Virus record (IMG/VR): IMGVR_UViG_3300033463_000086
Coordinates: 12,349 to 76,348 of that record
Length of the DNA stretch: 64,000 nucleotides
Direction: 5' to 3' (one strand)
From: a virus
Taxonomy: Duplodnaviria > Caudoviricetes
In this document: in pieces, positions 8,086 through 64,000 of the stretch
Layout: every line of letters starts with the position of its first letter
Position numbering within the stretch: the first letter of the stretch is position 1
The notes under the pieces: model-generated
What the model saw: the letters and a program-made list of their open reading frames with translations, nothing else
What the model was told of the DNA's origin: nothing
Database searches by the model: none
Made by a program: the position numbers and the translations under genes

Positions 8086-8389
8086 CGTCAACCTCTTCAG
8101 CATCAGTAATTTCAAGACTGTCACTGAGCATCTCAATAATAGCTTTTTTGACGAGATATGCCTGAGTTGCGTCAGTGTCTTCCTGAAGTTTACTGACAGT
8201 TTCTTCAAGTTTATCCATACGCTCACAGAGTTCATTAAGAACACCAATCGTGAACTTCTTGAAGTTGTTGTTACGCACATCAGCATTCAGCTCGTGGATT
8301 GCTTCTTTATCAACAATGCCGACCTTCTTGCAGACGTTAGCGAGTTTCTTTGCGGAGATTTTCTTGATAGTGAGTTTCATGTTTTTCAC
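8072..8389 (-). CDS. Hypothetical protein with acidic tail
   Basis: ORF track; ATGA coupling with helicase stop. Confidence 0.65.
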   Translation of the reverse strand: MKNMKLTIKKISAKKLANVCKKVGIVDKEAIHELNADVRNNNFKKFTIGVLNELCERMDKLEETVSKLQEDTDATQAYLVKKAIIEMLSDSLEITDAEEVDDDED

Positions 8390-9924
8390 CTCGTGGTTGG
8401 TTTTGGTAGTTCAGCGAAGTTATGGACACTTAGAATGTGAGGCGTTCCACAAGCCAAGCATCCGTAAAGTTTAGCCTGTTGTCGTTCATCATAAGGAGAT
8501 TCACGTTTAAGTAATGCCGCAATTCTCCAAATGTTCTTGATTCGCTCTTCTGGTGTCTGATTGATAGCGTAAAGAGCTGAACAGTTATCAATCTTTCGTT
8601 TATCCTCAGAGAACGATGCCAACGTCAAATCCTCTGTATTAAAGCCTGTTGCGTTGGATTGTGTAGCCGTAACAACAAGGCATTTGAATATATCGGCATA
8701 AGCACGTATTGACCGCCACCTCTGATTGACTGCCTCGCGTGGGTCTCTTCCCTCGGTTGCCATAGCGTCAATGTAGTCTATAACAACCACGTCAGGATGT
8801 TCCCAACCGAGCTTCTTGCAGATGTTCTTTGTCAGCGTAACCAGACCGCTATACGTAAGAGAACCTAATGGAAACTGCTCAACGTACAGACTGCCTTTGT
8901 GCTTCTGATTGACCCAAGAATCACGCATGAGTTTGGCAATTTCAGGTGTCAGAATCGGGTTATGCACCTGACGATAGGACACAGCTTCCTTATATTCCTT
9001 GCAAGCCTTATCATCACATGGGATATATTCGTCGCTTGTGATAACAGGTCTATCGGGAATATCGTTCCATTCGTTGAGAAGACTGCCACTGCCTTTACGC
9101 TCAAAACAAGTGCCTTTTTGGTTCTTTACGCAATCCAAACAAGGTATGAATTGTTTATCCGCATATTCAGGTGAGGTGGAAGTCTTGGCATCACCGCAGA
9201 GGATTCGTTTGTTGACCTGATTTTTGGTAAGGTCTCCGCAACTGATGAAGAGGGTTTTGTTTCCCTGATTACGTGCTACTCTGGCTGTGTAAATGAGCAT
9301 GTGAGATTTGCCCACTTTACCACGACCCTCAAACACGACAAAGGAATTTCGGGTAAGCGTATTGTTCATAAGCCTACCTAATTCACCCTCGAAGGAAATC
9401 AGCCGTTCATCCTCTTGACGGAACAAATCATCAATCTCGGAATCAGTGGCTTGCAGAATATCGGTTGAATTGACTACGACAGGCTTAATCTCATCAACAG
9501 AGTTAAGGAGTTGTTTAGCCTCATCGAGTTTACCTGATTCTACTAATGCACTGGCTTCTTCCGAGGACAGCTTGATGATTTGAGCCTGAAAGTAGTTGTA
9601 AGCCTCGTCAATCTCAACCTGAATGTCGGTAATCGGTTCCTGATTGGCAAACGAAGACAAGACAATCTGTATCTCTGATGCCACTTCGGGTTTGATTTTA
9701 CCTAATGCAACCTGATTCTTAAAGACGCGCTCGAACTTATCTTCCGGTGCGGTGTGGAACTTATTGAAGAAGACAATGCAGATACGAGCCATGACAGAGT
9801 AGTACCGATTCGACAGTACGCCCTGTTTGTATTTATCCGCAAACTCTTCAAGGAACTGTGTGGAGTTGACCATATCATAAACGATACGTAACTCCAAATC
9901 AGCCGTAGCCTCAATTATTTCCAT
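8386..9924 (-). CDS. Replicative helicase, DnaB-like (SF4)
   Basis: Walker A EGRGKVGKS, VVVIDYID, VVTATQSN. Confidence 0.88.
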   Translation of the reverse strand: MEIIEATADLELRIVYDMVNSTQFLEEFADKYKQGVLSNRYYSVMARICIVFFNKFHTAPEDKFERVFKNQVALGKIKPEVASEIQIVLSSFANQEPITDIQVEIDEAYNYFQAQIIKLSSEEASALVESGKLDEAKQLLNSVDEIKPVVVNSTDILQATDSEIDDLFRQEDERLISFEGELGRLMNNTLTRNSFVVFEGRGKVGKSHMLIYTARVARNQGNKTLFISCGDLTKNQVNKRILCGDAKTSTSPEYADKQFIPCLDCVKNQKGTCFERKGSGSLLNEWNDIPDRPVITSDEYIPCDDKACKEYKEAVSYRQVHNPILTPEIAKLMRDSWVNQKHKGSLYVEQFPLGSLTYSGLVTLTKNICKKLGWEHPDVVVIDYIDAMATEGRDPREAVNQRWRSIRAYADIFKCLVVTATQSNATGFNTEDLTLASFSEDKRKIDNCSALYAINQTPEERIKNIWRIAALLKRESPYDERQQAKLYGCLACGTPHILSVHNFAELPKPTTR

Positions 9925-10526
9925 TCGTTCACAACCTCGTATTGGTTAGTCATTTCAGCAAGACGCATGGCAATCTTAGGCTGTGCAGGTAATTCCGTTG
10001 CAGTCATAAGAAGTCGTTTCCCTGCACCGTGAAGCGTCTTGATAATGTAGTAGACGTAATCGTAGGTATAATTGTTATCAACGTAGAAATCGTCAATAGC
10101 AATAACACCGCAATTCAGCATGTCGTTCACAATATCACGGTACGCTTCCGGCTTACATCTGAGGGTACACATAACGCTGGACCAATCGCAGAACTTGACC
10201 TTAAAGCCAGTAAGGATAGCCTCTTTCAGCATACCAACCATTTGATAAGTTTTCCCTACACCTGATTCACCATACCAAATAGTACCTTTAACGAACTCAA
10301 GAGAGCTGAGGTCATACATGGCTGTTGTAAGGTGTGCGGCTCTGTAAATGTTTGGTACGCCGAGTTTTATCATAAGCTGAATCATGGCAACGTTGCTCAT
10401 TTCCTGCATACGGTTGAGTTTATTTGCATTACAGCTCGGACACCACTGAGTAAGCTCTTCCACCTTGCCGTCAATGAGAAAGCGGAAATCAAGTAAAGGG
10501 GTATTACACTTCGGGCATTGGTTCAT
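9915..10526 (-). CDS. DnaC/IstB-like helicase loader ATPase
   Basis: N-terminal CxxC pairs, GESGVGKT, IAIDD; directly upstream of DnaB-like gene. Confidence 0.8.
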   Translation of the reverse strand: MNQCPKCNTPLLDFRFLIDGKVEELTQWCPSCNANKLNRMQEMSNVAMIQLMIKLGVPNIYRAAHLTTAMYDLSSLEFVKGTIWYGESGVGKTYQMVGMLKEAILTGFKVKFCDWSSVMCTLRCKPEAYRDIVNDMLNCGVIAIDDFYVDNNYTYDYVYYIIKTLHGAGKRLLMTATELPAQPKIAMRLAEMTNQYEVVNEWK

Positions 10527-10842
10527 TTTTATACCTCACGATGACAAGGCGTTTCGGGTGGTAGTATTTGTTTACGGCTTCAAGTTCCTTTGTTCCTCCG
10601 GCTATGACAGAACGAACAATGTCCTCTTTCACTAACCGATTGAGGGAAAAGTATTCGTTATTAACCCATTGAGAAGTAGCGAGTTTCTTGAAGAATATAT
10701 CTAACTCGTCTCCTGTGAATGGTTTGAGGTATTCTTGCAGTTCAGCATGTTTCGTACCCCTCGGAATCGCCATAGCTTTGTTCGTTATCTTGATTACTCT
10801 CTTCACGAACTCCACTATTCCGCTGTTGTCGAATTGCGGCAT
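10504..10842 (-). CDS. Hypothetical protein (possible replication initiator fragment)
   Basis: ORF with AGGAG RBS; position before loader and helicase. Confidence 0.55.
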   Translation of the reverse strand: MPQFDNSGIVEFVKRVIKITNKAMAIPRGTKHAELQEYLKPFTGDELDIFFKKLATSQWVNNEYFSLNRLVKEDIVRSVIAGGTKELEAVNKYYHPKRLVIVRYKNEPMPEV

Positions 10843-11010: not shown

Positions 11011-11087
11011 TGGTCGGGGCAACAGGATTTGAACCTGCGACCTTATGCTCCCAAAGCACACGCTCTACCAACCTGAGCTATACCCCG
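11011..11087 (-). tRNA. tRNA-Pro(UGG), CCA encoded
   Basis: Acceptor CGGGGTA/TGCCCCG, anticodon loop TT-TGG-GA, GGTTCAAATCC T-arm. Confidence 0.95.
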
Positions 11088-11159: not shown

Positions 11160-12029
11160 TTAGAATGAACCACGGAAGTCTTTATAAGCAGGGAAGATAC
11201 CGTTTTTCGCCAAGCGTATAATCTCCAACGTTTCATTCTGTAGTGTAGGTCTGTAAATGGCATCCCAATAGTCAGCAGGGATTTCTTTCATTTTTATCCC
11301 TGCGTAACGACCAACCTTCATAATTGGTTCTTTGCTCATTGAGAACGTAAACAAACCGTCAGGGTCAATGAGATACTTGTCGTTATTTGACACTGTAAGG
11401 AACCATGAGAGTTCACGAGGTTTTCTTACACCGTCATTGAAACGCTCAAGTTGCTTCTCAAACACTTCCCGATAAAGCGTAGTGTGCATGTCAGGTTCGC
11501 CTCTCAACTCAGCCTTACGTGCATTGAAGCCGTAGGGAAATACATCGTTGTAAGCCATGCTGAGATATTGCTTGCCCCTGAAATGAAGACCACGAGCAAC
11601 CATTCTTATCCGGCTTATATCGAGCTTACCTGCAATACTGAAAGCACCTCGATTATCTGTCTGATATGCCTTACGGAGTGGCAGACAAACATCGTATTCA
11701 AGATTGTTACCGCACAGAATACAACCTTCAAGGTCATAATTCAGTTCGGTAGCAACAAGACAGAAAAACTCGCCCTGATTCTTGATGGTGCTGTAGGTTA
11801 ATCCAACATCAGACCAGCCGTTTTCCGCTTTTGTTATCTCGAACGGAGGATAAACAATGAACTGCTTGTTGTGAAGTACCTTGCTCTCATCGAACCTATA
11901 TTCCACAACCTTATACTCAATATAGACAGGGTACACGTCCTTAGTGCCTCGTGTACCTACCTTGTGAGCATAGCAACAGTGGATATAGGCTATCTTGTTT
12001 CCGTCAAGCCAATGGTTTACTTGGAACAT
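11160..12029 (-). CDS. DnaQ/exonuclease X-like protein, catalytic motifs degenerate
   Basis: ILCGNNLEYDV (ExoII-like), C-terminal GRYAGIKMKEIPADYW (ExoX C-terminal/DUF3820-like); ExoI DxE not seen. Confidence 0.55.
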   Translation of the reverse strand: MFQVNHWLDGNKIAYIHCCYAHKVGTRGTKDVYPVYIEYKVVEYRFDESKVLHNKQFIVYPPFEITKAENGWSDVGLTYSTIKNQGEFFCLVATELNYDLEGCILCGNNLEYDVCLPLRKAYQTDNRGAFSIAGKLDISRIRMVARGLHFRGKQYLSMAYNDVFPYGFNARKAELRGEPDMHTTLYREVFEKQLERFNDGVRKPRELSWFLTVSNNDKYLIDPDGLFTFSMSKEPIMKVGRYAGIKMKEIPADYWDAIYRPTLQNETLEIIRLAKNGIFPAYKDFRGSF

Positions 12030-13302
12030 TGATATTCTCCTGTTTGATTAGACGGTCGATTGCTCTTATTACACGCTCTGATGTAATGTTTCTGGTGCAT
12101 GAGAACTTTGTCGTTTCAAGTGCATCTCGTTCCTGTAGAAGCATGTTGCGCTCTTCCATCGTTGGTGCTTCGTAGATTTTCTTTGTAAGCTCGAAGACCT
12201 TTTTATCGACACGAGGACACCAAAGCCAAGCACTATGCCAGAAAGGAATCGTCATATCGCCCCAACAGTCTTTACACGGATTTTCTTCATTGAAAACACG
12301 GTAAGGAGTGTAGAACTCATTTTTAGGTGCTGTGAATCCTGAAATCATAACAACAGGTTTCTCACACGCCCAAGCAAGCCAAGACAGACCTGAAGTCATA
12401 CCGATAAAGAACTCAGCACCTCTTATCTGATTGACACGATGCTGTAAGGTATAATCACCAGTCCAGTCAATAGCTTCATGTGGAGCTTTCTGATATGAAC
12501 CCGGCAGACCAACGATGTTTGTTTTGTCAATGCACATCACGTCAAATCCAAGTTCGTTCAGGTGTTTTATCACGTCAGACCACCCATACGGATTCCACCA
12601 CAGCTTGCATCCTTTACTGCCTGAGAAACCGATACAGACATAAGGACGGTCTGTTTCAATCTGTTTGGTAGCTTTCAGGATAGGCGGTTTAGGTTCGATA
12701 TTGTTCGGCAGTCCCAATATGTTAGCCGCTAAACGATTCAAACCATGCTGTTGATAAGGAAGTTTACCCCATAGCGGCTCAACGTCCTTATCGAAGAAGA
12801 TGCCGATAAAATACGTTGCGTATATGGGTATCTCGGACAGCATTGATTCGTCAGACACCATTGTTATCTCAGGATAATGTGGCGCAAACAACTCCACGAA
12901 CCAAGGCTGTGCAAATACAATCGGCTTGCATTTGTGCTTTTCGATGAACGCGAGTATCTGCGAGAAGTGGGCAATACAATCACCCAGCGTTTTATGGGCG
13001 ATTCTGAACCTGACGTACCTGTCCTTGCAATCGAATGTGGTGGAGAAAACATTGTGGGACTTCGTGTTGAGAGCCACAATCTTCCACTTCACATAATATT
13101 TGGTTGGGGTGGCGAAGTAAGCACCGGGGGCAAGCTCTACATGATATAAGAGGTCCCCTGTGTCTTCATTGAAAAAGCTGACAGACCAAGTACCTTCAAC
13201 ATCCTTTGGTGTTTTTACCTCAGCCCCATAATTGAAACTGAACTGGATTCCGGTAACAGGGTCTTTCAACAGTTTCACATCATCTTCAAACTGTTCCATC
13301 AA
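12004..13302 (-). CDS. Autotransporter strand-loop-strand O-heptosyltransferase (Aah/TibC family)
   Basis: FNYGAEV, TLGD catalytic motif, KLWWNPYGW, FIGMTSGLSWLAWACEKPVVMISGFT...EF, iron-finger CxxC...WCPR...CTR. Confidence 0.92.
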   Translation of the reverse strand: MMEQFEDDVKLLKDPVTGIQFSFNYGAEVKTPKDVEGTWSVSFFNEDTGDLLYHVELAPGAYFATPTKYYVKWKIVALNTKSHNVFSTTFDCKDRYVRFRIAHKTLGDCIAHFSQILAFIEKHKCKPIVFAQPWFVELFAPHYPEITMVSDESMLSEIPIYATYFIGIFFDKDVEPLWGKLPYQQHGLNRLAANILGLPNNIEPKPPILKATKQIETDRPYVCIGFSGSKGCKLWWNPYGWSDVIKHLNELGFDVMCIDKTNIVGLPGSYQKAPHEAIDWTGDYTLQHRVNQIRGAEFFIGMTSGLSWLAWACEKPVVMISGFTAPKNEFYTPYRVFNEENPCKDCWGDMTIPFWHSAWLWCPRVDKKVFELTKKIYEAPTMEERNMLLQERDALETTKFSCTRNITSERVIRAIDRLIKQENINVPSKPLA

Positions 13303-14240
13303 TTTAACAGCTCCTTAATCTCGGCAAGTTCTTTTCTACCGTCCTTTGTTTTCAGGAGGTCATTCAGGTCTTTTCCATGCGACCAATGAATACGGTAGAC
13401 TTCTGTACGGTGTGAGAGTTGGTTTACGAGCTGATGTGCCGCAGATTCACCAGCCGAATCCATATCGTAGGCAACGTAGACCTTACCGAATGTAGCCAAC
13501 TCGTTTATTTGTTCTCTTGTGAAACAGCAACCGTGAGTATGAACAGCACCGTCACCAACAGACATGGCATCGTAGGCGGCTTCCGTAACGATAACAGTAT
13601 CAGCCGGAACATTATCAATACCCCACAGGAACGACTTGCATGGTATCAACTCTTCGTATTCGCAGGCGGTTATGTACTGTTTCTTGACGTAACTGCCACA
13701 CTGAAACGAAACAAGCTGACCCTGCAAGTAATTCGGTATTACAATGCAGTTGGCGTACTTGTTTGAATACCGCTGTTCCTTGACCGTCTTGTAGTATGTG
13801 AGGTACTGGTCTGCTATGCCTGTTGAACTGAGGTGGTACTTCCTGATTACATCGTCAGCACAATCAGGGAACCGCTTCATCAGGTACTCATAAGCACGAA
13901 GAAGCATAGCACCATTCCCCGGCAGTACAACTTCTTTAGGACGCAACGAAATCTCCTTCATATCCTGTTTGTCAATATTCTTGAACAAACCATGAAGGAT
14001 GTGCCTTGTTTCAGTTCGTTTCGTACCGAGCAAGTTGGAAAAGACTGCTACGGTGGAATGGTAGCCGCACTTGTAACAGTTGCAGTAACCTTCTTCCAAA
14101 TTGATACCAAGATGAAAGTTCGTATCACCAGACATGCAGAATGGGCAACAAATCTGAACCCATCCACGCCGACAGTGATGATTGCCTTCAAGTCGGTAGT
14201 CAATATGGTTATCCTCTAAAAAATCAATCACTCGGCTCAA
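13299..14240 (-). CDS. DnaG-type primase
   Basis: Zn finger CPFC...CYKC, TOPRIM VTEAAYD and YDMD. Confidence 0.88.
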   Translation of the reverse strand: MSRVIDFLEDNHIDYRLEGNHHCRRGWVQICCPFCMSGDTNFHLGINLEEGYCNCYKCGYHSTVAVFSNLLGTKRTETRHILHGLFKNIDKQDMKEISLRPKEVVLPGNGAMLLRAYEYLMKRFPDCADDVIRKYHLSSTGIADQYLTYYKTVKEQRYSNKYANCIVIPNYLQGQLVSFQCGSYVKKQYITACEYEELIPCKSFLWGIDNVPADTVIVTEAAYDAMSVGDGAVHTHGCCFTREQINELATFGKVYVAYDMDSAGESAAHQLVNQLSHRTEVYRIHWSHGKDLNDLLKTKDGRKELAEIKELLN

Positions 14241-14356: not shown

Positions 14357-14560
14357 TTATCGGGCATAATTACCTCCTGTAGTTTTGAGTGTAGACGTCA
14401 AGTTTACGACATCCTCATTCTTTGCTGTAAAGCCGGGGTGTGTATTGAAGTTATCTGGAATGTACGAATAACCTGCACAGTCATACCCACATTCAGCTTG
14501 TGAGTTTGTCAGTTTGCAGTTCCCTGTATTCGGGTCGTATCGTGTGCAATTTGTCTTCAT
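14357..14560 (-). CDS. Small Cys-rich hypothetical protein
   Basis: Start MKTNCTRY behind GGAG. Confidence 0.55.
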   Translation of the reverse strand: MKTNCTRYDPNTGNCKLTNSQAECGYDCAGYSYIPDNFNTHPGFTAKNEDVVNLTSTLKTTGGNYAR

Positions 14561-14575
14561 AATTTCTCCAAAAAA

Positions 14576-14649
14576 TGGCAGTCCAGCATGGATTTGAACC
14601 ATGACCGACAGGACCAAAACCTGTTGTGCTACCGTTACACCACTGGACT
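14576..14649 (-). tRNA. tRNA-Gln(UUG), CCA encoded
   Basis: Acceptor AGTCCAG/CTGGACT, anticodon arm ACAGG-TTTTGGT-CCTGT. Confidence 0.93.
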
Positions 14650-14654
14650 GCGTG

Positions 14655-14885
14655 TTATTGTTCGTTTGTTACAGAGCCAGCCAACATATCATGTTTAGCC
14701 GCCGCACCAAGTTCTTTTGTTATTCCCGGTTCAAATGTATTCAATAGGTTTGCAATATCACCAATGGAATCCTGAAACCGACGCCCCCATGCATACGTAT
14801 CACACATGTAGCGATAGTATAACAATTTCAGCAGGTCAACACAGAAATGTAACCTCTCCGCTGTCGTGTAGGGTGGGACAATCAT
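14655..14885 (-). CDS. Hypothetical protein
   Basis: ORF coupled to methylase stop. Confidence 0.5.
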   Translation of the reverse strand: MIVPPYTTAERLHFCVDLLKLLYYRYMCDTYAWGRRFQDSIGDIANLLNTFEPGITKELGAAAKHDMLAGSVTNEQ

Positions 14886-15916: not shown

Positions 15917-16339
15917 TTAGGCATTATTGTATTCTCCTATTTGTAGTATGTAGCCAAGTTCTCTGAAAGCACGAACCAGTGTGTGCGGTGTTACATTCCT
16001 ACGTCTGCAACATCTACATGCGACCACAAAGGCACTTCTTCCTGAGCGTCTACGGCGTTGTGTGTCAAGAAACTCAAACAAGGCTTCGGCATCGTTCGTT
16101 ACGAGTTCCACCTTGTTCGTCAGGATGTTACGAATACCGAATATCAGACCCATGACGCGCATTTGTCTGCACAGGGTTCTAATTCTCGGATGGTATCTCC
16201 TGTTCAGAATCGAATGGACCGTCCCTGTGTTTGGAAGTTGTAATCTGTGCATAGCATAGGAGTAGATTCTATGACTGTACATTTGATTAAAACGGTCATA
16301 GAACTTATCCATGATGTACTTGCCAGCTTCTTCTTCCAT
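15917..16339 (-). CDS. Basic hypothetical protein, possible DNA binder
   Basis: ORF track; Arg-rich. Confidence 0.5.
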   Translation of the reverse strand: MEEEAGKYIMDKFYDRFNQMYSHRIYSYAMHRLQLPNTGTVHSILNRRYHPRIRTLCRQMRVMGLIFGIRNILTNKVELVTNDAEALFEFLDTQRRRRSGRSAFVVACRCCRRRNVTPHTLVRAFRELGYILQIGEYNNA

Positions 16340-17294: not shown

Positions 17295-17378
17295 GGAAAA
17301 ACAAAAATTTCTCAAAAAATATAAGCGATATAGAGTATGACGAACAAGATAGCCCCGAAAACAAAGGGAATCAGGTCT

Positions 17379-17678
17379 TCACTTTGCATTTTTGCGCCTT
17401 TTTGTTTTATGTTTTTGCGGATAGAACATGTCACACTTACCGTTTTCGTCAGGCTTAAACCCACACATGCTGACAGGGTACGGATAATCTTTCAGCCTAT
17501 CGGTATTACGACCGCATTTAGGACGCAGTGGACATTCGTTATTGCCACAGAAGGTGATGTCATAATCCCAACTATCGACAACTTCTTCCGTGATGCCGTA
17601 CAAAGCACAAAGCAGTTCAAGAATATCGTTCATTTTGGGTTTAACTCCTCTTCTGCTCTCTTGGCGATACGGTTGCAC
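17379..17678 (-). CDS. Small Cys-rich hypothetical protein (true start probably internal, MNDILE)
   Basis: FCGNNECPLRPKC...GKC. Confidence 0.55.
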   Translation of the reverse strand: MQPYRQESRRGVKPKMNDILELLCALYGITEEVVDSWDYDITFCGNNECPLRPKCGRNTDRLKDYPYPVSMCGFKPDENGKCDMFYPQKHKTKRRKNAK

Positions 17679-17932
17679 ATATCACGCAAGGCAATCAGAG
17701 CATCGTGTTCAGTTGCGTAAAGTAACGACATTGGCATAAATACCGTACCAATCGCGCTGTTGATATAGACCTTTCCAATCGGGTCTATGTGCTTGGGATA
17801 AATGTCAGTGACCAAGACATGTTCAATAGTCAGGTCGGTTGTGCCAAATTTAATATCCGGCATAATCAACCAGTACGTTTTAGCCATCATACTCTTCCTC
17901 CATAGCCGCCTCAGAGAAATCCAAATCAGCAT
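17630..17932 (-). CDS. Hypothetical protein (true start probably MMAKTY)
   Basis: ORF track. Confidence 0.55.
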   Translation of the reverse strand: MLIWISLRRLWRKSMMAKTYWLIMPDIKFGTTDLTIEHVLVTDIYPKHIDPIGKVYINSAIGTVFMPMSLLYATEHDALIALRDMCNRIAKRAEEELNPK

Positions 17933-20577: not shown

Positions 20578-20804
20578 TTCTTATCCTTTCGTTGTTTTTC
20601 GTTCCAAGATACGATACCCCAAACAGCCAATGCAAGCTGAACCACGTCAAGCGTAGCCCTGTTGTAAAGACACATAGAGCAGTCGTAAGTGAGCCAAAGA
20701 ATGTTGCCAAGACACCAGAGGTAGAAGCAAAGAATGTTCATCTTCACATTCAACACAGTGCCAGTAAGACAAACAACAGTAGCCGCCCATGTTAGATAGT
20801 TCAT
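20574..20804 (-). CDS. Short PnuC-like (nicotinamide riboside transporter) membrane protein
   Basis: Three helices, WCLGNILW and WGIVSW motifs. Confidence 0.65.
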   Translation of the reverse strand: MNYLTWAATVVCLTGTVLNVKMNILCFYLWCLGNILWLTYDCSMCLYNRATLDVVQLALAVWGIVSWNEKQRKDKK

Positions 20805-21403
20805 GACAGAATCAGCTCCTTTGCGTAAGGAAGTGTTTCAATCCAACCGCAGAAACGATGCCATTCCTGAAGTTTGTGGTTCTTACGCTGTTTGTAGATA
20901 GTTCGTAACTGCATGTAATTGGTAACAACATGAGCCGTCAACTGCAAACCCATAGGACAGTGAGCAACAAAATCATCGTAAGTAATGTGACCGTTCTTAT
21001 ACTCACAAAGAGCATCGTTGAGGTTAGACCAATCAGCGTCACTCACATGTTCGGTTGCCACGTTACTTCCCATAAGCTGTTCAAGGCAGTGCATCTTAGA
21101 TTGGCTTGAAACAATCTGGATGAAGTGATACCGTTCAAACTGCATCCACCATGTATTAGTTGCAGTCACGTTGAACGACACCAAGATACCAGTGAGGAAA
21201 TTCTTATGACCGGAATTATCATCACCTGCTTTCACAAGACGGTCTGCCCTGTCTAATGCCAGCTTACCGACATTCAGTTCAGGGTTGTCGAAGTCTTTTA
21301 CTTGACTGTCGAATACCTCAGCACAAAAATTGCATCTGAACGGAAATCCAGATGCAACCAAGGCTTCTTTTAGGTTGTAGACGTTTGTGTTGCTGACGTT
21401 CAT
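20801..21403 (-). CDS. ThyX-like flavin-dependent thymidylate synthase homolog
   Basis: GHKNFL, QFERYH...SSQSKMH, PMG...TNYMQLRTIYKQRKNHKLQEW. Confidence 0.7.
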   Translation of the reverse strand: MNVSNTNVYNLKEALVASGFPFRCNFCAEVFDSQVKDFDNPELNVGKLALDRADRLVKAGDDNSGHKNFLTGILVSFNVTATNTWWMQFERYHFIQIVSSQSKMHCLEQLMGSNVATEHVSDADWSNLNDALCEYKNGHITYDDFVAHCPMGLQLTAHVVTNYMQLRTIYKQRKNHKLQEWHRFCGWIETLPYAKELILS

Positions 21404-21828: not shown

Positions 21829-22431
21829 TTATGGTTTTGGCAGTACGTTATAATAAGCTATGGAGGTATTCACGAACTTGATGTTTCTTCCGTCCGTTTT
21901 ACACTTCATAAAGAACCAACCATCTTCGCCTCTTCCTGTAAGTCCGCCATGATAGACGTGAAGCTCTCTCATGGTTTTGACTTTTGTTAGGAAGTTAGCC
22001 CAATCAATATGACCGATAGGATTAAAGGCGTTCATTATATCAGGATTGCCCAAATGAGGCAGGTTGAATATCTTGAAGACAATCATATCCTGACCTTCAC
22101 ACTCATCGGCAATCGTCAGGAAACCACGATAAAGCAAGTTATCATCGTCAAGAATATACACATAGTCGTTATCAGAACCCACGTATTGTATAACCCTGTC
22201 AATCCACGATGAAAGCCACTCGTCATTTTCTTTCTTATCCGTAGCGTAAAAGACCGTAGTGTGTTCGTCATTGAATTGCGTAAACTCCGTGTAAGGTGTT
22301 CCAAAAGTCAAGTCAACGATAAGCGCATGTGTGTAGGTGTGGTGCGAATCCTTGAAGGCATACGCAATACTGTCCTTGACCTTTTGAATGTTGGTCGGTT
22401 TATAGCACCGGGTTATAAAGACAAAATTCAT
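21829..22431 (-). CDS. GT-A fold glycosyltransferase (GT2-like), paralog 2
   Basis: FITRCY start strand, YILDDDN DxD motif, IDWANF. Confidence 0.7.
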   Translation of the reverse strand: MNFVFITRCYKPTNIQKVKDSIAYAFKDSHHTYTHALIVDLTFGTPYTEFTQFNDEHTTVFYATDKKENDEWLSSWIDRVIQYVGSDNDYVYILDDDNLLYRGFLTIADECEGQDMIVFKIFNLPHLGNPDIMNAFNPIGHIDWANFLTKVKTMRELHVYHGGLTGRGEDGWFFMKCKTDGRNIKFVNTSIAYYNVLPKP

Positions 22432-22433
22432 GC

Positions 22434-23030
22434 TTACCTCTTCAATTTATTATAGTAAGCAAGTTCACGGTCTACGAATTTAACGGAACACTTCTCAACC
22501 CAAACTGCATTATTGAAGAAGTTGCCGTCAATTTCAGATGATTTCTTACCGTTTCTGAACACTTTGACACGCTTCATAACATCAGCTCTCGTGATAAAGT
22601 TAGCCCAATCAATATGTCTGATGGCGTTGCCAATGTCAGAACGACCCCAAGCCGGACGTCCTTTAACCTTGAACACGATTATATCTTCATCACTAATTTC
22701 TTTGCAGACGTCAAGAAAATCTGGATGAAGGATATTATCATCGTCAAGGATATAAACGTAGCTGTCATTCGGTACATTAAAAGCAATCAGAGCAGTATCA
22801 ATATCGGAAGCCATGAACTTATCTCCGTCAGTTTTGGAGTAGACATAGCTTATCTTATCCGCCTTATCTGCAAACGGCTTAAACTCTTCTTCCGTATGTC
22901 CTGATGTGCAGTCAACGATAAGGATATGCTGATACGTGTGTTCTGTCAAGCCGAATACGTTGCGTATACTGTCTTGTACCGCTTCAAGGTTATCAGGTCT
23001 TGAACACCTTGTGATGATTGTGAAGTGCAT
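22434..23030 (-). CDS. GT-A fold glycosyltransferase (GT2-like), paralog 1
   Basis: IITRCS, YILDDDN, IDWANF shared with neighbour. Confidence 0.7.
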   Translation of the reverse strand: MHFTIITRCSRPDNLEAVQDSIRNVFGLTEHTYQHILIVDCTSGHTEEEFKPFADKADKISYVYSKTDGDKFMASDIDTALIAFNVPNDSYVYILDDDNILHPDFLDVCKEISDEDIIVFKVKGRPAWGRSDIGNAIRHIDWANFITRADVMKRVKVFRNGKKSSEIDGNFFNNAVWVEKCSVKFVDRELAYYNKLKR

Positions 23031-25565: not shown

Positions 25566-26189
25566 ATGAACTTCACACGCAAAGACAATAACGGAAACGA
25601 AATCAAACCACCAGACGTGACGATGAATACACACACCGACAAAGGTAACGATGAAGACAAACGCGCATGTAACGACAAAGACATGCCGACAGATACATGC
25701 ACAGGCGTATTAGATGTTAGAGAGGCATTAATGACGGTGAAAGAAAATGAATCGCCAGATATGCCAATCGCTAATATGAAAGTTGAAACATTCCTCTGTA
25801 ACATAGCAGAACAATCATTACATGGGATGCCTGCACTTGTTGATGCATACAAACGGTGCGGCTTCAATGTAGATAAACCACCTGCGCTTGTCCGTAATGA
25901 TATTAGACGTCTGCTTTTCAATAAGCGCATAAAGGAACGTCTGGCATATCTAAAAGAGTGTGAATGGGAAATCAATAAGCCAGACTTATCATCCATTTGC
26001 AAGGAGTTCGAGAATATATTGAATGAAGAAGAGTTAGCTATGAACTCTCGTATCACTGCATTAAATTCCCTTGCAAAGTTAGCCGGATTACTTGAAAACA
26101 ATCAACATAAATCAGACACAAAGGTAGCGGTCATTTTCAACACGTCAGAAAAGCCGCCTATTGATGTGAAAGTAGAACAGGTGAACTAA
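25566..26189 (+). CDS. terS: Terminase small subunit (putative)
   Basis: DAYKRCGF...RRLLFNKRIKERLAYL...RITALNSLAKLAGL matches the TerS HTH and oligomerisation pattern; start behind GGAGA. Confidence 0.7.
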   Translation: MNFTRKDNNGNEIKPPDVTMNTHTDKGNDEDKRACNDKDMPTDTCTGVLDVREALMTVKENESPDMPIANMKVETFLCNIAEQSLHGMPALVDAYKRCGFNVDKPPALVRNDIRRLLFNKRIKERLAYLKECEWEINKPDLSSICKEFENILNEEELAMNSRITALNSLAKLAGLLENNQHKSDTKVAVIFNTSEKPPIDVKVEQVN

Positions 26190-27094
26190 TGAAAATTCAT
26201 ATCTGCCTCGTTACGAATGACAAGTGGTATCGTTTCATGCTCAGGACCATGTACGATATTATCATCCGCAAGAATCCTGAAACAGAAATCAAGTTCTATG
26301 TGCTTTTAGACCGTGTGGATAAGGCTGATGAACTTGACGCCTTTAACGCGATTGACGGCATTGAAGTTGTGAAGAAGAACATGGATTCCTATGAAGAGTT
26401 CGGTCAACTTAAAAGGTATCATTCGTATTGGGTCGGTCAGGAAAAGCATCTTAAATTCCTTATCCCTGAGCTTGACATTTTTGAAGGCGTTGACAGGGTT
26501 ATCTACATGGATATTGATATGCTTGCCCGAAAAGACCTGACTGATATTTACACGGTCAATCTGAATGACAAGCCTATTGGACTGTGCCGAGATTATTACA
26601 CGCTTCTCGATGGCTCATTTGCTCTGCCACCTGAAAGCCGTACAAAGCAACTGGAATCGGGTCTTATGGTTATGGACCTGCCGAAGTTGCGTGACATTCA
26701 ATTTACGAAACAGTGTAAAGACATCGCTCCTTATCACTGTGGGGATATGCCAGTGGTCAATACGATATGCACACCGATTGCACAGAAACTTGACCCGAAG
26801 TATCAGATTCCGTTCCATGAAATGAGTGTTATCGGAAACTTTAACATTATTGAACACTGGAACATTTTCAACAACACTGCCTACGAAAACATTCAGGAAC
26901 TTATCGACAAGAGTTATATATGGCATTTCTGTGGCGATAAGAAACATATGTACAATACAGTCAGTGTTGTCAGGATGGCATTCTATCTGTCTGAATCCCG
27001 TCTTTCTGCATTCCTCAAAACAGGGAATGTAATGGAATGGAAACCAGAAGATGATGCACCTCTTACGAATACATCAGATTTGAATGGTATCTGA
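26189..27094 (+). CDS. GT8 family glycosyltransferase (RfaJ/WaaJ-like)
   Basis: IHICLVTNDKW, RVIYMDIDML DxD, SGLMVMDL, WHFCGDKK. Confidence 0.88.
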   Translation: MKIHICLVTNDKWYRFMLRTMYDIIIRKNPETEIKFYVLLDRVDKADELDAFNAIDGIEVVKKNMDSYEEFGQLKRYHSYWVGQEKHLKFLIPELDIFEGVDRVIYMDIDMLARKDLTDIYTVNLNDKPIGLCRDYYTLLDGSFALPPESRTKQLESGLMVMDLPKLRDIQFTKQCKDIAPYHCGDMPVVNTICTPIAQKLDPKYQIPFHEMSVIGNFNIIEHWNIFNNTAYENIQELIDKSYIWHFCGDKKHMYNTVSVVRMAFYLSESRLSAFLKTGNVMEWKPEDDAPLTNTSDLNGI

Positions 27095-47909: not shown

Positions 47910-48542
47910 ATGACTTACGAAGAACTGTCCGCAAAACTCAAAAAAGGAGAACCTCTGACAGAAGAGGAGTTCAAAGAGTTCGGGAAAGTTACACGCCCGA
48001 CTGAACGCTTCAACGAGGTCTCCGCAGAAAAACAGAAACTTAACGACCAGATTAAGGAGTTGAACACACAGATTGAAACTCTCAATGCTGAAAAGCTCAA
48101 GCTCACTCAGCAGAATGATGATGCTTTCAATGCCAAGCTCTCCGAAATCACTGGCGCACTTGAGACGCTGAAAGGAGAAAATGAAAACCTGAAGAATGCA
48201 AATCAGAAATATGAGCGTCTTCAGAAGGTCAGTCAGATTGCTAACACAACCTGCAAGACCGTGGCAAATGCTACGTTCAAGGATGCTGACTATCTTTCTG
48301 TTCTCCTTGAAAGAAAAGGGGTGGACCTTACAAAAGAGGAGGATGTCAAAAAGGCTATCCTCGAAATCAAAGAGGAAAAGCCCGAACAGTTTGTCGTTAC
48401 AGTCAATTCCGGTTCTGGTGCAGGTGGAGAACCTAATAACCAGACATCGGGTGAAAAACCTGAGTTCAAAACACAAGAAGACCGAGTTGATTTCATAGCT
48501 AAACACGGCTTTGAAGAATATAAGAAACTTAAAGGAGATTGA
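47910..48542 (+). CDS. Capsid scaffolding protein
   Basis: Coiled coil, PEQF...GSGAGG, directly before the capsid gene. Confidence 0.8.
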   Translation: MTYEELSAKLKKGEPLTEEEFKEFGKVTRPTERFNEVSAEKQKLNDQIKELNTQIETLNAEKLKLTQQNDDAFNAKLSEITGALETLKGENENLKNANQKYERLQKVSQIANTTCKTVANATFKDADYLSVLLERKGVDLTKEEDVKKAILEIKEEKPEQFVVTVNSGSGAGGEPNNQTSGEKPEFKTQEDRVDFIAKHGFEEYKKLKGD

Positions 48543-48544
48543 TT

Positions 48545-49621
48545 ATGGCTATCACACTTCTTTCCGACCTTCTTCCGTATGCGAATCAGTTCCGTGAAGG
48601 TTACATTGATTCGATGGTTGAGGCTTCTCGCCTTTTCAATGAAGGCTCCAACGGCGCAATCCGCTTTACCGATTCTGATGCCAAGGGTACTCTGACCAAG
48701 ACTGCCTACTTCAAGGATTTCGGTACTGTCAGTCGGCGCGACATTACTTCTACTTCCGACCAGACCCCGGAAAAGATTGAACGTGCTGAACACACCATGT
48801 TCCGCACCTACTTCAAGCTGAATGCCATTGAATGGCAAGATGAGGCTTTCTGGACCTCTGACCGTATGCAACAGGACGCCATCATGTATATGATTGGCGG
48901 TCAGCTTGCCAAGAAGAAGATGCAGGAATCCATCAAACAGGCTATCAACATCGCCTCTACCGCGATTGTTTCTGGTGATGGTGCTACGCATAAGACCGTT
49001 CTTGACCTGACCTCCCCCAAGCAAAACTTCCTTCAGCCGCAGGTCAACCTTGCGCGTATGAAGTTTGGTGCTGAGTACGGTCGCCTCAAGATTATGGTCA
49101 TGCATTCCAGTGTGTTCTTCGCTCTGGTTCAGAATCAGACCCTCAACTACATGTATGACCTCGGCGGCGGCGTTACGCTCTACGGTGGCATCCCTGCTAC
49201 TATGGGTATGCCGTTCATCGTGTCCGACCAGCCGTCCCTCATCTACACCTCTGGTGATGATGTCTTCTACAAGACCCTCCTCCTGACTGATTCCGCCATT
49301 ACTCTGGCTGACGCAGGTCCTATCCGCGCCAACCTTCAGACTGTCGGCGGCAAGGAAAACATTTCCCATCTGTATCAGGCTGAATGGTCTATGTGGAACA
49401 ACGTCAAGGGCTATCAGCTCAAGGCTGCCGCTAACCCGGATTCCAATCCGTCTGACAGCACTCTGACCACATCCTCGAATTGGGAACAGTGGGTGGCTGA
49501 TACCAAGAATACCGCTGGTGTTCTTGTTAAGTCCATCGCTGACCCGGCTTCCATCCAGCAGGTCATTAACGTGCGTTACGTTTCTGATGACGCTGGCTCC
49601 GGCTCTGGTTCCGGCTCCTAA
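48545..49621 (+). CDS. Major capsid protein with C-terminal GSGSGS tail
   Basis: HK97-fold-like pattern (LFNEGSNGAI, SRRD, VMHSSVF, LLLTDSAI), strong C-ending codon bias, terminator downstream. Confidence 0.85.
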   Translation: MAITLLSDLLPYANQFREGYIDSMVEASRLFNEGSNGAIRFTDSDAKGTLTKTAYFKDFGTVSRRDITSTSDQTPEKIERAEHTMFRTYFKLNAIEWQDEAFWTSDRMQQDAIMYMIGGQLAKKKMQESIKQAINIASTAIVSGDGATHKTVLDLTSPKQNFLQPQVNLARMKFGAEYGRLKIMVMHSSVFFALVQNQTLNYMYDLGGGVTLYGGIPATMGMPFIVSDQPSLIYTSGDDVFYKTLLLTDSAITLADAGPIRANLQTVGGKENISHLYQAEWSMWNNVKGYQLKAAANPDSNPSDSTLTTSSNWEQWVADTKNTAGVLVKSIADPASIQQVINVRYVSDDAGSGSGSGS

Positions 49622-62366: not shown

Positions 62367-62396
62367 TAACATATATTAAAATAAGGAGCTTTTATT

Positions 62397-64000
62397 ATGG
62401 CTACTGGTTCCCCTGTTTCTTTCTGGTACGGTACTCGCGCACAGTTTGACAGTATCGCTACCAAACTCGACACAACCCTCTATTTCATTACGGACGAACA
62501 GGCTCTTTACAAGGGTTCTATCAAGTTCTCCGGCTCTGGTGTTGATACCCTGCTTTCTGTTGGTACTTCGGCTCCGGCATCCAACCAGCCGTATGACAAG
62601 TATTTCAACACAAGCACCGGTCTCATTTACGTTCTGAGTGCTACTGGTTCTACCGTTTCCAGTTACACCCCTGCAAATGGCGCACTGTATTACAACGCTG
62701 ATTCCAAGAGATTCATTACCCTTACTTACGATGGTTCTGCTTGGTCTGAAAACGACCTGTATGACGCAGGTATCAGTGTTGAGGACGGCACTGGTCTGTA
62801 TCTGTCCGGCACTACCATTGGCGGTCTTGATGCTACAACTTCCTCCAAGGGTGTTGTTCAGATTGGCAACAACATCACCGTAACGAATGGCACTATCTCT
62901 GTTCCTGTTGCCGCGAGTAACGTTTTTGGTGTTGTGAAGATTGGCGATAACATCACTAATGCCAGCGGTACTATTTCTGTTGCCAAGGCTACATCTTCCT
63001 CGCTTGGTGTGGTTAAGACTGGTACTTCGACTGACACTGGCATTAGTATTGACGCAACAGGTCTTATTAGTGTTGTTACTGCAAGTGCCTCTGTTCGTGG
63101 TGCTGTTAAAATCGGCACTAACATCAATGTAAGTTCTGCTGGTGTTATCTCTGTAAATGACGCGACACAGGGTCAGAAGGGTCTTGTTACCCTGCTGATT
63201 GCTTTTGATGCAAACAACCTGCCTCCGGGGTCTTATTGGAGTACGGATTCCGCAAGCAAATACGCCACAACCCTTACCGCAGTTAGAAATTATGCTGAGG
63301 CTGTTCTTGATAACAGTACGGTTGGTCTCAGCATCAACTCTTCGACTGGAAAGGCTCAGATTGCAAATGCCTCTGCTTCTCAGAAGGGCGTGGTTAAAAT
63401 CGGTACTAACATTGACGCGGCTGATGGTGTGATTTCTGTTAAGGACGCCAGCACAGCAGATAAAGGTATTGTTGCTCTTGTCAATAATGCCTCTTCCAGT
63501 GATATGAGTTCCGAGGTCAAGGCTATCACTCCTTATGCGGTCAGTCAGGTTGCGGAAGGTCTGAATACTGAAATCAACACCAAACAAAATTCCCTCACAC
63601 CCGGTTTCGACATTACACTTACTTCCGGTTCTACAATCAGTGTTCCTCGGTATCGTGATGTTGTGAATGTGACTGGTTCTTCCGTTACGCTTCAGGCTGG
63701 TTACGCTTACAAGATTCAGGCTACTACTGGCGCGAAGAAGCTGTTTACCGAGACCATTCCTTCCGGTCAGTTCGGTATGGAAGGTCATGCTGAAATCTAC
63801 GTGACTGATACTGGTTACATTCAGACAGACACCAATGTTGTTCTTGTTGACGCTCTTGAACCGAACTCTGTGAATAACTGCACAATCCGTTTCCATAACG
63901 GTCTGTGCCTCATCAGCATCGAAGACCATGTTGCAGGTTATGTTGTTCGCACTGCCACAGGTACAGCTAACGGCTCCATTTACTACGGCATGACCACTGA
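62397..64000 (+). CDS. Tail fibre, partial (runs off the right edge)
   Basis: Manual translation MATGSPVSFWYGTRAQFDSI...; ~25-aa repeats ASASQKGVVKIGTNI...GVISV; open to 64000. Confidence 0.85.
   Translation, partial: MATGSPVSFWYGTRAQFDSIATKLDTTLYFITDEQALYKGSIKFSGSGVDTLLSVGTSAPASNQPYDKYFNTSTGLIYVLSATGSTVSSYTPANGALYYNADSKRFITLTYDGSAWSENDLYDAGISVEDGTGLYLSGTTIGGLDATTSSKGVVQIGNNITVTNGTISVPVAASNVFGVVKIGDNITNASGTISVAKATSSSLGVVKTGTSTDTGISIDATGLISVVTASASVRGAVKIGTNINVSSAGVISVNDATQGQKGLVTLLIAFDANNLPPGSYWSTDSASKYATTLTAVRNYAEAVLDNSTVGLSINSSTGKAQIANASASQKGVVKIGTNIDAADGVISVKDASTADKGIVALVNNASSSDMSSEVKAITPYAVSQVAEGLNTEINTKQNSLTPGFDITLTSGSTISVPRYRDVVNVTGSSVTLQAGYAYKIQATTGAKKLFTETIPSGQFGMEGHAEIYVTDTGYIQTDTNVVLVDALEPNSVNNCTIRFHNGLCLISIEDHVAGYVVRTATGTANGSIYYGMTT

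Follow-up and report, generated by a model that had tools for sequence, protein, structure and literature searches.

A phage-only subclade of the Aah/TibC protein O-heptosyltransferase family, with an enlarged iron finger, encoded in the replisome operon of a ruminant-gut siphovirus

To our knowledge, O-heptosylation of proteins has been described only for the autotransporter adhesins of Gram-negative bacteria, where it is linked to virulence. The enzymes of the family concerned (the Aah/TibC or BAHT family) are usually encoded beside their acceptor. TibC of enterotoxigenic Escherichia coli and Aah of diffusely adherent E. coli (PDB 4rap and 4rb4) are built, in order, of a beta-barrel, a GT-B core of the GT9 type, a thumb, and a four-cysteine finger (PMC4358343). 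In TibC, Asp110 is the catalytic base, Thr226, Lys230, Arg286, and Trp305 bind the sugar nucleotide, Cys339, Cys342, Cys358, and Cys370 are ligands of ferric iron, Phe265 and Val266 form the thumb tip required for the dodecamer, and Pro300 (Ser294 in Aah) is the site that sets heptose stereoselectivity (PMC4358343). The iron finger has a role both in back-to-back dimerization and in recognition of the TibA beta-helix, and the authors of that work compare its helical path on the substrate to that of zinc fingers on DNA (PMC4358343). Here we describe a gene of this family from a tailed phage (Duplodnaviria; Caudoviricetes), found in a 64,000-nucleotide stretch of DNA, called the window below, that corresponds to bases 12349-76348 of the 76,348-bp IMG/VR record IMGVR_UViG_3300033463_000086. 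Unlike the genes for TibC and Aah, it is part of a replisome operon, and no gene for an autotransporter or AIDA-repeat protein accompanies it.

Three other groups of enzymes bear on how the phage protein is to be read. Mycobacteriophages use their own cytoplasmic glycosyltransferases to O-glycosylate structural proteins, namely capsid and tail subunits with Ser/Thr-rich acceptor tails; the enzyme families, sugars, and hosts are different ones, and virion glycosylation has been demonstrated there, whereas for the phage described here it would be a prediction. The GT9 heptosyltransferases WaaC and WaaF share the GT-B fold and the ADP-heptose donor with BAHTs, lack the beta-barrel, thumb, and iron finger, and transfer to a lipid-linked sugar, not to a protein. 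The alpha- and beta-glucosyltransferases of phage T4 are, like the phage BAHT, phage GT-B enzymes that depend on a host sugar nucleotide, and they act on hydroxymethylcytosine.

Results

The BAHT gene and its product

The minus-strand open reading frame (ORF) is open across 432 codons and could start at a TTG at 13302 or at an ATG at 13299-13297. The ATG is the more likely start, to judge from its sequence surroundings: it shares bases with the stop codon of the primase gene (TGATG) and follows an AAGGAG Shine-Dalgarno sequence by 11 nt. The ATG of the next gene, which encodes a 289-aa protein, is at 12029, 26 nt within the BAHT 3' end. From these two overlaps we conclude that the gene is tightly packed into the replisome operon, among whose genes a preliminary description of the window, made from the sequence alone, had placed it; the primase is on one side and the helicase loader and DnaB on the other (Table 1).

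That description had also read the gene as a motif-intact member of the Aah/TibC family rather than a lipopolysaccharide (LPS) enzyme of the GT9 type, and both profile and fold searches agree. The NCBIfam equivalog model TIGR04414 (hepto_Aah_TibC) matched the product at 339.5 bits against a cut-off of 200 (333.7 bits in a six-frame search), whereas the LPS heptosyltransferase I model TIGR02193 gave 25 bits against a cut-off of 185. Pfam detected TibC_1st (PF21129, E 2.1e-9) and Glyco_transf_9 (E 5.5e-8), and phmmer against the PDB found TibC (4rap) at E 2.3e-67 over residues 18-379; identity to TibC and Aah is ~33-40%. An AlphaFold2 model built from a 90-sequence alignment, with a mean predicted local distance difference test score (pLDDT) of 94.1 and a predicted template modeling score of 0.91, has the parts of TibC in the same order, starting with eight strands at aa 20-101 that form the flattened beta-barrel. 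TibC was the top Foldseek match, with a template modeling (TM) score of 0.80 by query length and 0.90 by target length (E 5e-39), followed by WaaF, a Veillonella GT9 protein, and WaaC at 0.35-0.58; a T4 glucosyltransferase (1y6f) reached 0.26, and its accessory domains are not shared. The gene is thus a genuine, full-length member of the Aah/TibC-type (BAHT) protein O-heptosyltransferase family.

The residues on which TibC depends have clear counterparts. Asp108, within a TLGD motif, corresponds to the catalytic Asp110, Ser229 to Thr226, Lys233 to Lys230, Arg289 to Arg286, and Trp308 to Trp305, while Cys343, Cys346, Cys362, and Cys402 correspond to the four iron ligands. Asp108 is kept in 23 of the 24 members of the phage clade defined below, and Lys233, Arg289, Trp308, and the four cysteines in all 24; the cysteines are also present in every other BAHT aligned, and the finger is putatively iron-binding. 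The model shows the thumb hairpin (strands 263-264 and 271-272). Its tip, Gly268/Ser269, belongs to a G-L-P-G-S sequence where TibC has G-Q-G-F-V, so that the two consecutive hydrophobic residues of TibC are not retained; the clade consensus is G[ML]PGS or IAPL, and that of bacterial BAHTs is G.G[FLI][VN]. At position 303, the site of TibC Pro300 and Aah Ser294, this phage has Thr and most of the clade Ala, with Ser in most bacterial relatives; Ala or Thr at this site predicts an Aah-like tolerance for the ADP-L,D and ADP-D,D forms of heptose.

An insertion in the iron finger marks a phage-only clade

The unusually long gap between the third and fourth cysteines, which the preliminary description had pointed out, measures exactly 39 residues (C362 to C402), as compared with 11 in TibC (C358 to C370). 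The 28 extra residues are modeled as a confident helix-turn-helix (helices 363-378 and 382-396; pLDDT of the block 93-98). Among 121 aligned BAHTs, bacterial and viral, an insertion of 19-28 residues between "WCPR" and "F.CT" is present in 24: this phage, its metagenomic relatives P0003-P0016, the viral loci L004-L010 and L013, and L084. It is missing from the remaining 97, among them the enterobacterial TibC/Aah-like and the Victivallaceae proteins. In a FastTree phylogeny computed with the insertion columns excluded, the 24 insertion-bearing proteins are monophyletic with support of 1.0; they are an old, previously undescribed phage-only subclade of the family. With a net charge of -5 to +1, the inserted segment is neutral to acidic, and the median isoelectric point of the clade is 5.9. 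Because the hairpin sits in the iron finger, the element that TibC uses for dimerization and acceptor recognition, it is a reasonable inference that the acceptor, the assembly, or both have changed relative to TibC.

The gene is a conserved part of the replisome block

All clade members with known genomic context share one gene order: SNF2 helicase, a few small genes, primase, BAHT, an exonuclease-type protein, small proteins, helicase loader, and DnaB, and the order from primase through BAHT to DnaB persists to 37-39% BAHT identity. In this phage the exonuclease-type position is held by the 289-aa protein, which is 26% identical, across 223 aa, to its positional counterpart in relatives, a protein that contains an RNase_T exonuclease. 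We compared the phage with a near-identical relative (G001) and four complete or near-complete ones (G002-G005). Like the replisome genes and those for terminase, portal, capsid, tail tube, and tape measure, the BAHT gene belongs to the core that the phage shares with its complete relatives G002 and G004. A co-variation profile singled out no partner gene, as nearly all relatives with enough sequence carry BAHT; L169 and L170 may be without it, but both end close to the relevant region.

Between this phage and G001, the flanking proteins are 98-100% identical and the BAHTs 83.6%. The BAHT genes differ by 131 synonymous codons and 70 amino acids spread evenly along the gene, giving a ratio of nonsynonymous to synonymous change (dN/dS) near 0.1 as a rough estimate from difference counts in one pair. 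Since the differences are mostly synonymous, evenly distributed, and set amid near-identical flanks, they have the pattern of an allele exchanged by recombination and under purifying selection, and positive selection is rejected as the source of the divergent G001 allele. The BAHT counterpart lies at L002:10001-11296, and small genes at 9915-10842, 15917-16339, and 17337-17720 drop likewise, to 81-91%. Metatranscriptomic libraries from three studies contain contigs that cover the gene at 95-99% identity, one of them 23 kb long; this is at most compatible with its expression.

Such an embedding raises the question whether the enzyme serves the replisome itself. Its tight translational packing with the primase and the downstream replication-side protein, its standing as a core gene of the replisome block, and its remodeled recognition finger would all fit an acceptor that is another cytoplasmic phage protein, of the replisome or regulatory, or a BAHT that is mainly a binding or scaffold factor, as has been reported for the BAHT-family protein BimC of Burkholderia. 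We consider this improbable. The catalytic and sugar-binding residues are all retained under purifying selection, which argues for catalysis; no replisome protein has a repeat or Ser-rich feature; and we know of no precedent for a phage BAHT acting on replisome proteins or as a scaffold.

BAHTs of other viruses accompany virion genes

A pattern scan of IMG/VR confirmed at least 573 stretches encoding BAHT relatives. Cultured-phage resources, with 50,697 records, offered 4 distant matches, no PHROGs family corresponds to BAHT, and a literature search, which was not exhaustive, brought up no account of a BAHT, TibC, or heptosyltransferase encoded by a phage. Clustering the best 80 of the at least 573 IMG/VR loci by gene context gave three groups, of which group A is the replisome-embedded, insertion-bearing clade.

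In group C (~11 loci), BAHT lies directly beside, and after, a Ser/Gly/Val-rich protein of 418-1756 aa. In the one member scanned, PF16168 matched four AIDA repeats (E 3.4e-28), with no detectable autotransporter barrel domain, and at the locus examined (L014) the pair is found five genes past the tape measure (phrog_1533, E 1.9e-75). The group C enzymes (for example those of L014, L015, and L018) share the family and the catalytic and cysteine residues of our phage BAHT; they lack the finger insertion, fall outside its clade, and belong to a tail module in which the AIDA-repeat protein is an obvious candidate acceptor. The pair looks like an enzyme and its acceptor. From contigs of this type (L011-L019, L021, L047, L061) we predict a class of phage tail proteins that carry heptose; Lentisphaeria and Verrucomicrobia contigs from metagenome-assembled genomes (MAGs; L113, L119, L132, L162) encode near-identical proteins. 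In group B, two to five BAHT-like genes form an array beside a 1304-aa tail sheath protein with a Ser/Thr/Gly-rich N-terminal extension of ~1000 aa; on its contigs (L052-L058, L062-L063, L066, L069, L072-L081), the BAHT-like proteins are 300-940 aa long and some are tandem fusions.

Two further arrangements were seen. On L034-L036 and L044, a 386-aa 2-oxoglutarate-Fe(II) oxygenase of a prolyl-hydroxylase-type Pfam family is encoded immediately upstream of a BAHT-like pair, possibly as a hydroxylation-plus-glycosylation cassette. In the cultured Microcystis phage Mel-JY01 (L195, PP395634.1 4750-8430), a BAHT domain (30% identity) forms the C terminus of a 1226-aa protein annotated as "methyltransferase FkbM" that adjoins a "structural protein"; a 640-aa "cytidylyltransferase like protein" encoded 3 kb downstream may belong to a sugar-nucleotide pathway.

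By these contexts, virion proteins would be the commonest target of phage BAHTs. Mainly because of them we rank the phage's own virion proteins first as the acceptor in the phage described here, with a probability of about 45%; a host protein comes second, another phage protein or a scaffold role well below, and DNA last.

Candidate acceptors and further glycosyltransferases in this phage

The preliminary description had gone further and placed the enzyme at the core of a virion-glycosylation system with three further glycosyltransferases and Ser-rich virion targets. Of the three, the GT8 enzyme is solid (Pfam E 4e-18). The other two are 200-aa paralogues, 41% identical to each other, for which the GT2 assignment is weak: the Pfam match lies below the cut-off (E 1.6e-3), and the atlas feature score to viral GT2 clusters is 0.98. 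As for targets, circularizing the record, whose ends share an exact repeat of 127 bp and which is rated complete, joins the frame open at the right edge of the window to the first gene of the genome (1-2081; L083:129-2081) in a single ORF of 1190 aa. Its product is a tail fiber with an N-terminal tail-tip domain, fiber-type repeats at aa ~140-400, and a C-terminal tip diversified by a diversity-generating retroelement (DGR); it contains 9.9% Ser and 11.9% Thr. A 517-aa minus-strand ORF (62376-63929) is probably a shadow ORF. The major capsid protein has a Ser/Thr-rich patch at aa 301-325 and ends in ...DDAGSGSGSGS.

These features would allow a dedicated version of virion modification, in which BAHT primes Ser residues of capsid or fiber, and the GT8 and GT2-like enzymes extend the glycan, with the mycobacteriophages as precedent. 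The relatives do not bear it out. The GT8 and the two GT2-like genes occur only in this phage (G000) and G001 and are missing from G002-G005, all of which carry BAHT; the 1190-aa fiber and the capsid Gly-Ser tail are likewise absent from G002 and G004, whose capsid proteins (48% identical) end in ...VRIVS; and within this phage the genes are dispersed over 15 kb in different operons. A conserved multi-enzyme system is therefore not supported, we regard the dedicated version as unlikely, and the extra glycosyltransferases are at most a lineage-specific elaboration. The Gly-Ser tail and fiber repeats are ruled out as conserved acceptors, and a conserved enzyme would need an acceptor that is itself conserved or very loosely defined.

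Two other candidates were rejected. The 289-aa downstream protein has no repeats and no Ser-rich feature, and its position and weak homology are those of an exonuclease protein. AIDA-like repeats, which the preliminary description had thought might lie elsewhere in the genome, are missing: PF16168 gave no match at E<=10 in the phage and none in five relatives. As a control, an AIDA-like neighbor within 1.5 kb was detectable by phmmer at 18 of 64 bacterial BAHT loci.

These absences weigh against a virion acceptor, as do several other observations. The gene is in the replication operon and not in a late operon; the thumb tip lacks the residues on which dodecamer assembly and activity depend in TibC; the assignment of the host, given below, is indirect; and RNA-library coverage comes from contigs only, one of them 23 kb long, so DNA carry-over is possible. 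Virion glycosylation is plausible from the BAHT/AIDA-repeat pairs of other viral lineages and, for this phage, a prediction.

Heptose donor and host

The preliminary description saw no genes for ADP-heptose synthesis in the window, and the same is true of the entire 76-kb genome: a six-frame search at E<=1 detected neither GmhA nor HldE domain I (kinase) or domain II (adenylyltransferase). Any heptose donor would therefore be host-derived, and it is probably host ADP-heptose.

Several indirect clues point to a host. The nearest bacterial BAHTs, 40-42% identical, come from ruminant-gut MAGs of Victivallaceae/Lentisphaeria, and all five such Lentisphaeria genomes searched have a full-length heptose-kinase match of 313-341 bits, just below the 345-bit cut-off. 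At least nine Lentisphaeria genomes have tRNA-Pro genes 92-93% identical to that of the phage, and a small protein of the phage's DGR region is 57% identical to a protein on a Lentisphaeria MAG contig. A competing assignment comes from L084 (JAQVJY010000018.1), a 27-kb phage fragment with the replisome gene order of the window that is binned in a "Paludibacteraceae" MAG. This host is disfavored, because an HldE-type kinase was found in none of 41 Paludibacteraceae genomes (no match above 62 bits) and the phage tRNA-Pro is 72-79% identical to those of 31 Paludibacteraceae, with one match at 86%; the binning of L084 into a Bacteroidales MAG conflicts with this evidence and may be an artifact. 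Base composition does not decide the choice of host (G+C 43% in the phage and 44-57% in the Lentisphaeria loci), and a comparison of 20 kb of phage DNA with 301 Lentisphaeria genomes for CRISPR-spacer-like matches gave only tRNA and conserved-gene matches among the matches listed. On balance we lean slightly toward a ruminant-gut Lentisphaeria host.

The same clues bear on whether the target is a host protein, such as the large Ser/Gly-rich surface proteins encoded beside Lentisphaeria BAHT genes. Modifying these could mask receptors, thereby excluding superinfection or keeping progeny off debris, or it could rewire the infected cell. In favor, the gene is placed in the early/middle replisome operon; an enzyme conserved while fibers vary fits a constant non-phage target; and the closest bacterial BAHTs, some of which adjoin very large Ser/Gly-rich or AIDA-like proteins, belong to the same group that the tRNA-Pro and heptose-kinase evidence indicate as host. 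We nevertheless find a host acceptor rather unlikely. Such a host has a BAHT of its own, so that of the phage would be superfluous unless it differs in specificity. Surface remodeling is slow within a lytic cycle, and no lysogeny genes were seen in the phage. In other viral lineages, BAHT is tied to virion genes and not to host-directed ones.

A ThyX-fold neighbor and the question of DNA as acceptor

The window also encodes a 200-aa protein with no Pfam match that resembles divergent viral ThyX clusters. Its model (pLDDT 93.1) has the ThyX fold (TM 0.66-0.71, E ~1e-6) with the flavin/dUMP motif altered to "RYH...SSQSK"; a profile of the family matched no PDB sequence, and only the fold search found ThyX. 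The gene adjoins the GT2-like genes here and stands directly upstream of primase-BAHT in relatives. This conserved proximity, together with the place of BAHT among replication genes, would be compatible with phage DNA as the acceptor, heptose being placed on a hypermodified base much as the T4 glucosyltransferases modify theirs. The likening of the iron finger to zinc fingers on DNA by the TibC authors (PMC4358343) could be read in the same way.

The wider family of the ThyX-fold protein, found on more than 531 stretches in IMG/VR, suggests otherwise. No BAHT, GT2-like, or GT8 homologue occurs within 4 kb of it at 73 other viral loci; it usually accompanies genes for dUTPase (19 loci), for ribonucleotide reductases, both anaerobic and aerobic, and for ligase and recombination. 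Because the neighbors are of the dUTPase and ribonucleotide reductase kind and not glycosyltransferases, the protein is probably a very divergent thymidylate synthase serving ordinary dTMP supply, and the case for DNA hypermodification through it is weak. No hydroxymethylase, TET, or kinase genes were found in the phage, and the hydroxymethyl-base pathway on which the T4 enzymes depend is likewise not found. The BAHT itself is acidic, its insertion neutral to acidic, and it retains the protein-binding beta-barrel. We therefore consider DNA a very improbable acceptor.

Genome layout

The plus strand carries a siphovirus gene set of large terminase, portal, scaffold, Gp13-like major capsid protein, and a 1461-aa tape measure. 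The minus-strand block encodes, besides the primase, loader, and DnaB, an ATP-dependent ligase, a clamp-loader-like protein, a split family-A polymerase with exonuclease, a Dam-type methylase, and the SNF2 helicase. DNA of the phage or of close variants is present in bovine and other ruminant gut metagenomes (19 studies, 2011-2025); a megablast search of the region against cultured phages gave zero matches. In bovine metatranscriptome-library contigs, the stretches 14380-14855 (flanks of tRNA-Gln) and 17420-17878 are swapped for unrelated sequence of similar length; they are strain-variable cassettes.

Table 1. Features of the window discussed in the text, with the evidence for each
Feature	Position	Strand	Evidence or remark
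BAHT (Aah/TibC-family) protein O-heptosyltransferase gene, 431-432 aa	12004..13302	-	Profiles, PDB match, AlphaFold2 fold
TibC_1st domain, N-terminal flattened beta-barrel, aa 17-101	13000..13254	-	PF21129 E 2.1e-9; strands 20-101 in AlphaFold2 model
Iron-finger module, Cys343/Cys346/Cys362/Cys402	12097..12276	-	Alignment to TibC C339/342/358/370
Clade-specific insertion between third and fourth Cys, aa ~364-399, predicted two-helix hairpin	12106..12213	-	Alignment, tree, AlphaFold2
DnaG-type primase (Toprim)	13299..14240	-	Pfam; stop codon overlaps BAHT start
289-aa protein, replication-side by appearance	11160..12029	-	Weak homology to RNase_T-exonuclease-containing protein of relatives
IstB-like helicase loader	9915-10526	-	Downstream end of conserved block
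DnaB-like helicase	8386-9924	-	Downstream end of conserved block
tRNA-Pro(TGG)	11011..11087	-	Host clue by identity to Lentisphaeria tRNA-Pro genes
GT8 glycosyltransferase	26189..27094	+	Pfam E 4e-18
Two paralogous 200-aa proteins, probably small GT2-like glycosyltransferases	21829..23030	-	Sub-threshold Pfam match, atlas feature score
Divergent ThyX-fold protein, kept across lineage	20801..21403	-	Fold search, family context
Tail fiber, N-terminal 534 aa of 1190 aa	frame from ~62385/62397 to 64000	+	Record circularized
Major capsid protein (Gp13-like) with C-terminal Gly-Ser tail	48539..49621	+	Candidate acceptor, this phage only

Discussion

Taken at the strengths given above, the evidence suggests the following course of events. 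BAHT would be transcribed and translated in the replisome operon together with the primase, the 289-aa protein, tRNA-Pro, the loader, and DnaB, and would be an active, iron-binding GT-B glycosyltransferase drawing on the ADP-heptose pool of the host. Asp108 would serve as the base, with Ser229, Lys233, Arg289, and Trp308 holding the sugar nucleotide, and the enzyme would move heptose, in the cytoplasm, to the Ser hydroxyls of a folded protein. The hairpin-bearing finger and the replaced thumb tip would be expected to direct the enzyme to an acceptor, and perhaps into an oligomer, unlike those of the AIDA/TibA type. If that acceptor is a virion protein, which is the most conjectural step, then the capsid, tail tube, distal tail, or fiber would be modified before assembly and acquire a heptose coat that could serve in shielding or adhesion.

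The insertion also invites a more speculative thought, namely that the finger hairpin has re-aimed the enzyme toward a target in replication or host takeover, a conserved cytoplasmic protein of the phage or the host or, least likely, DNA. We hold this to be doubtful. Were it true, O-heptosylation would be a regulatory or anti-defense modification during infection and not a decoration of surfaces.

The BAHT family is common on uncultured viral contigs and almost invisible in cultured-phage resources. The pairing of group C enzymes with AIDA-like tail proteins predicts heptosylated phage adhesins. The lineage described here has long kept its BAHT within the replisome operon, with a remodeled finger and without a recognizable acceptor, and the insertion amounts to a natural experiment on substrate choice and assembly in BAHTs. 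If the acceptor is in the virion, phage virion glycosylation would extend to a new sugar and to phages of Gram-negative gut bacteria; if it is elsewhere, protein heptosylation would have a new use during infection.

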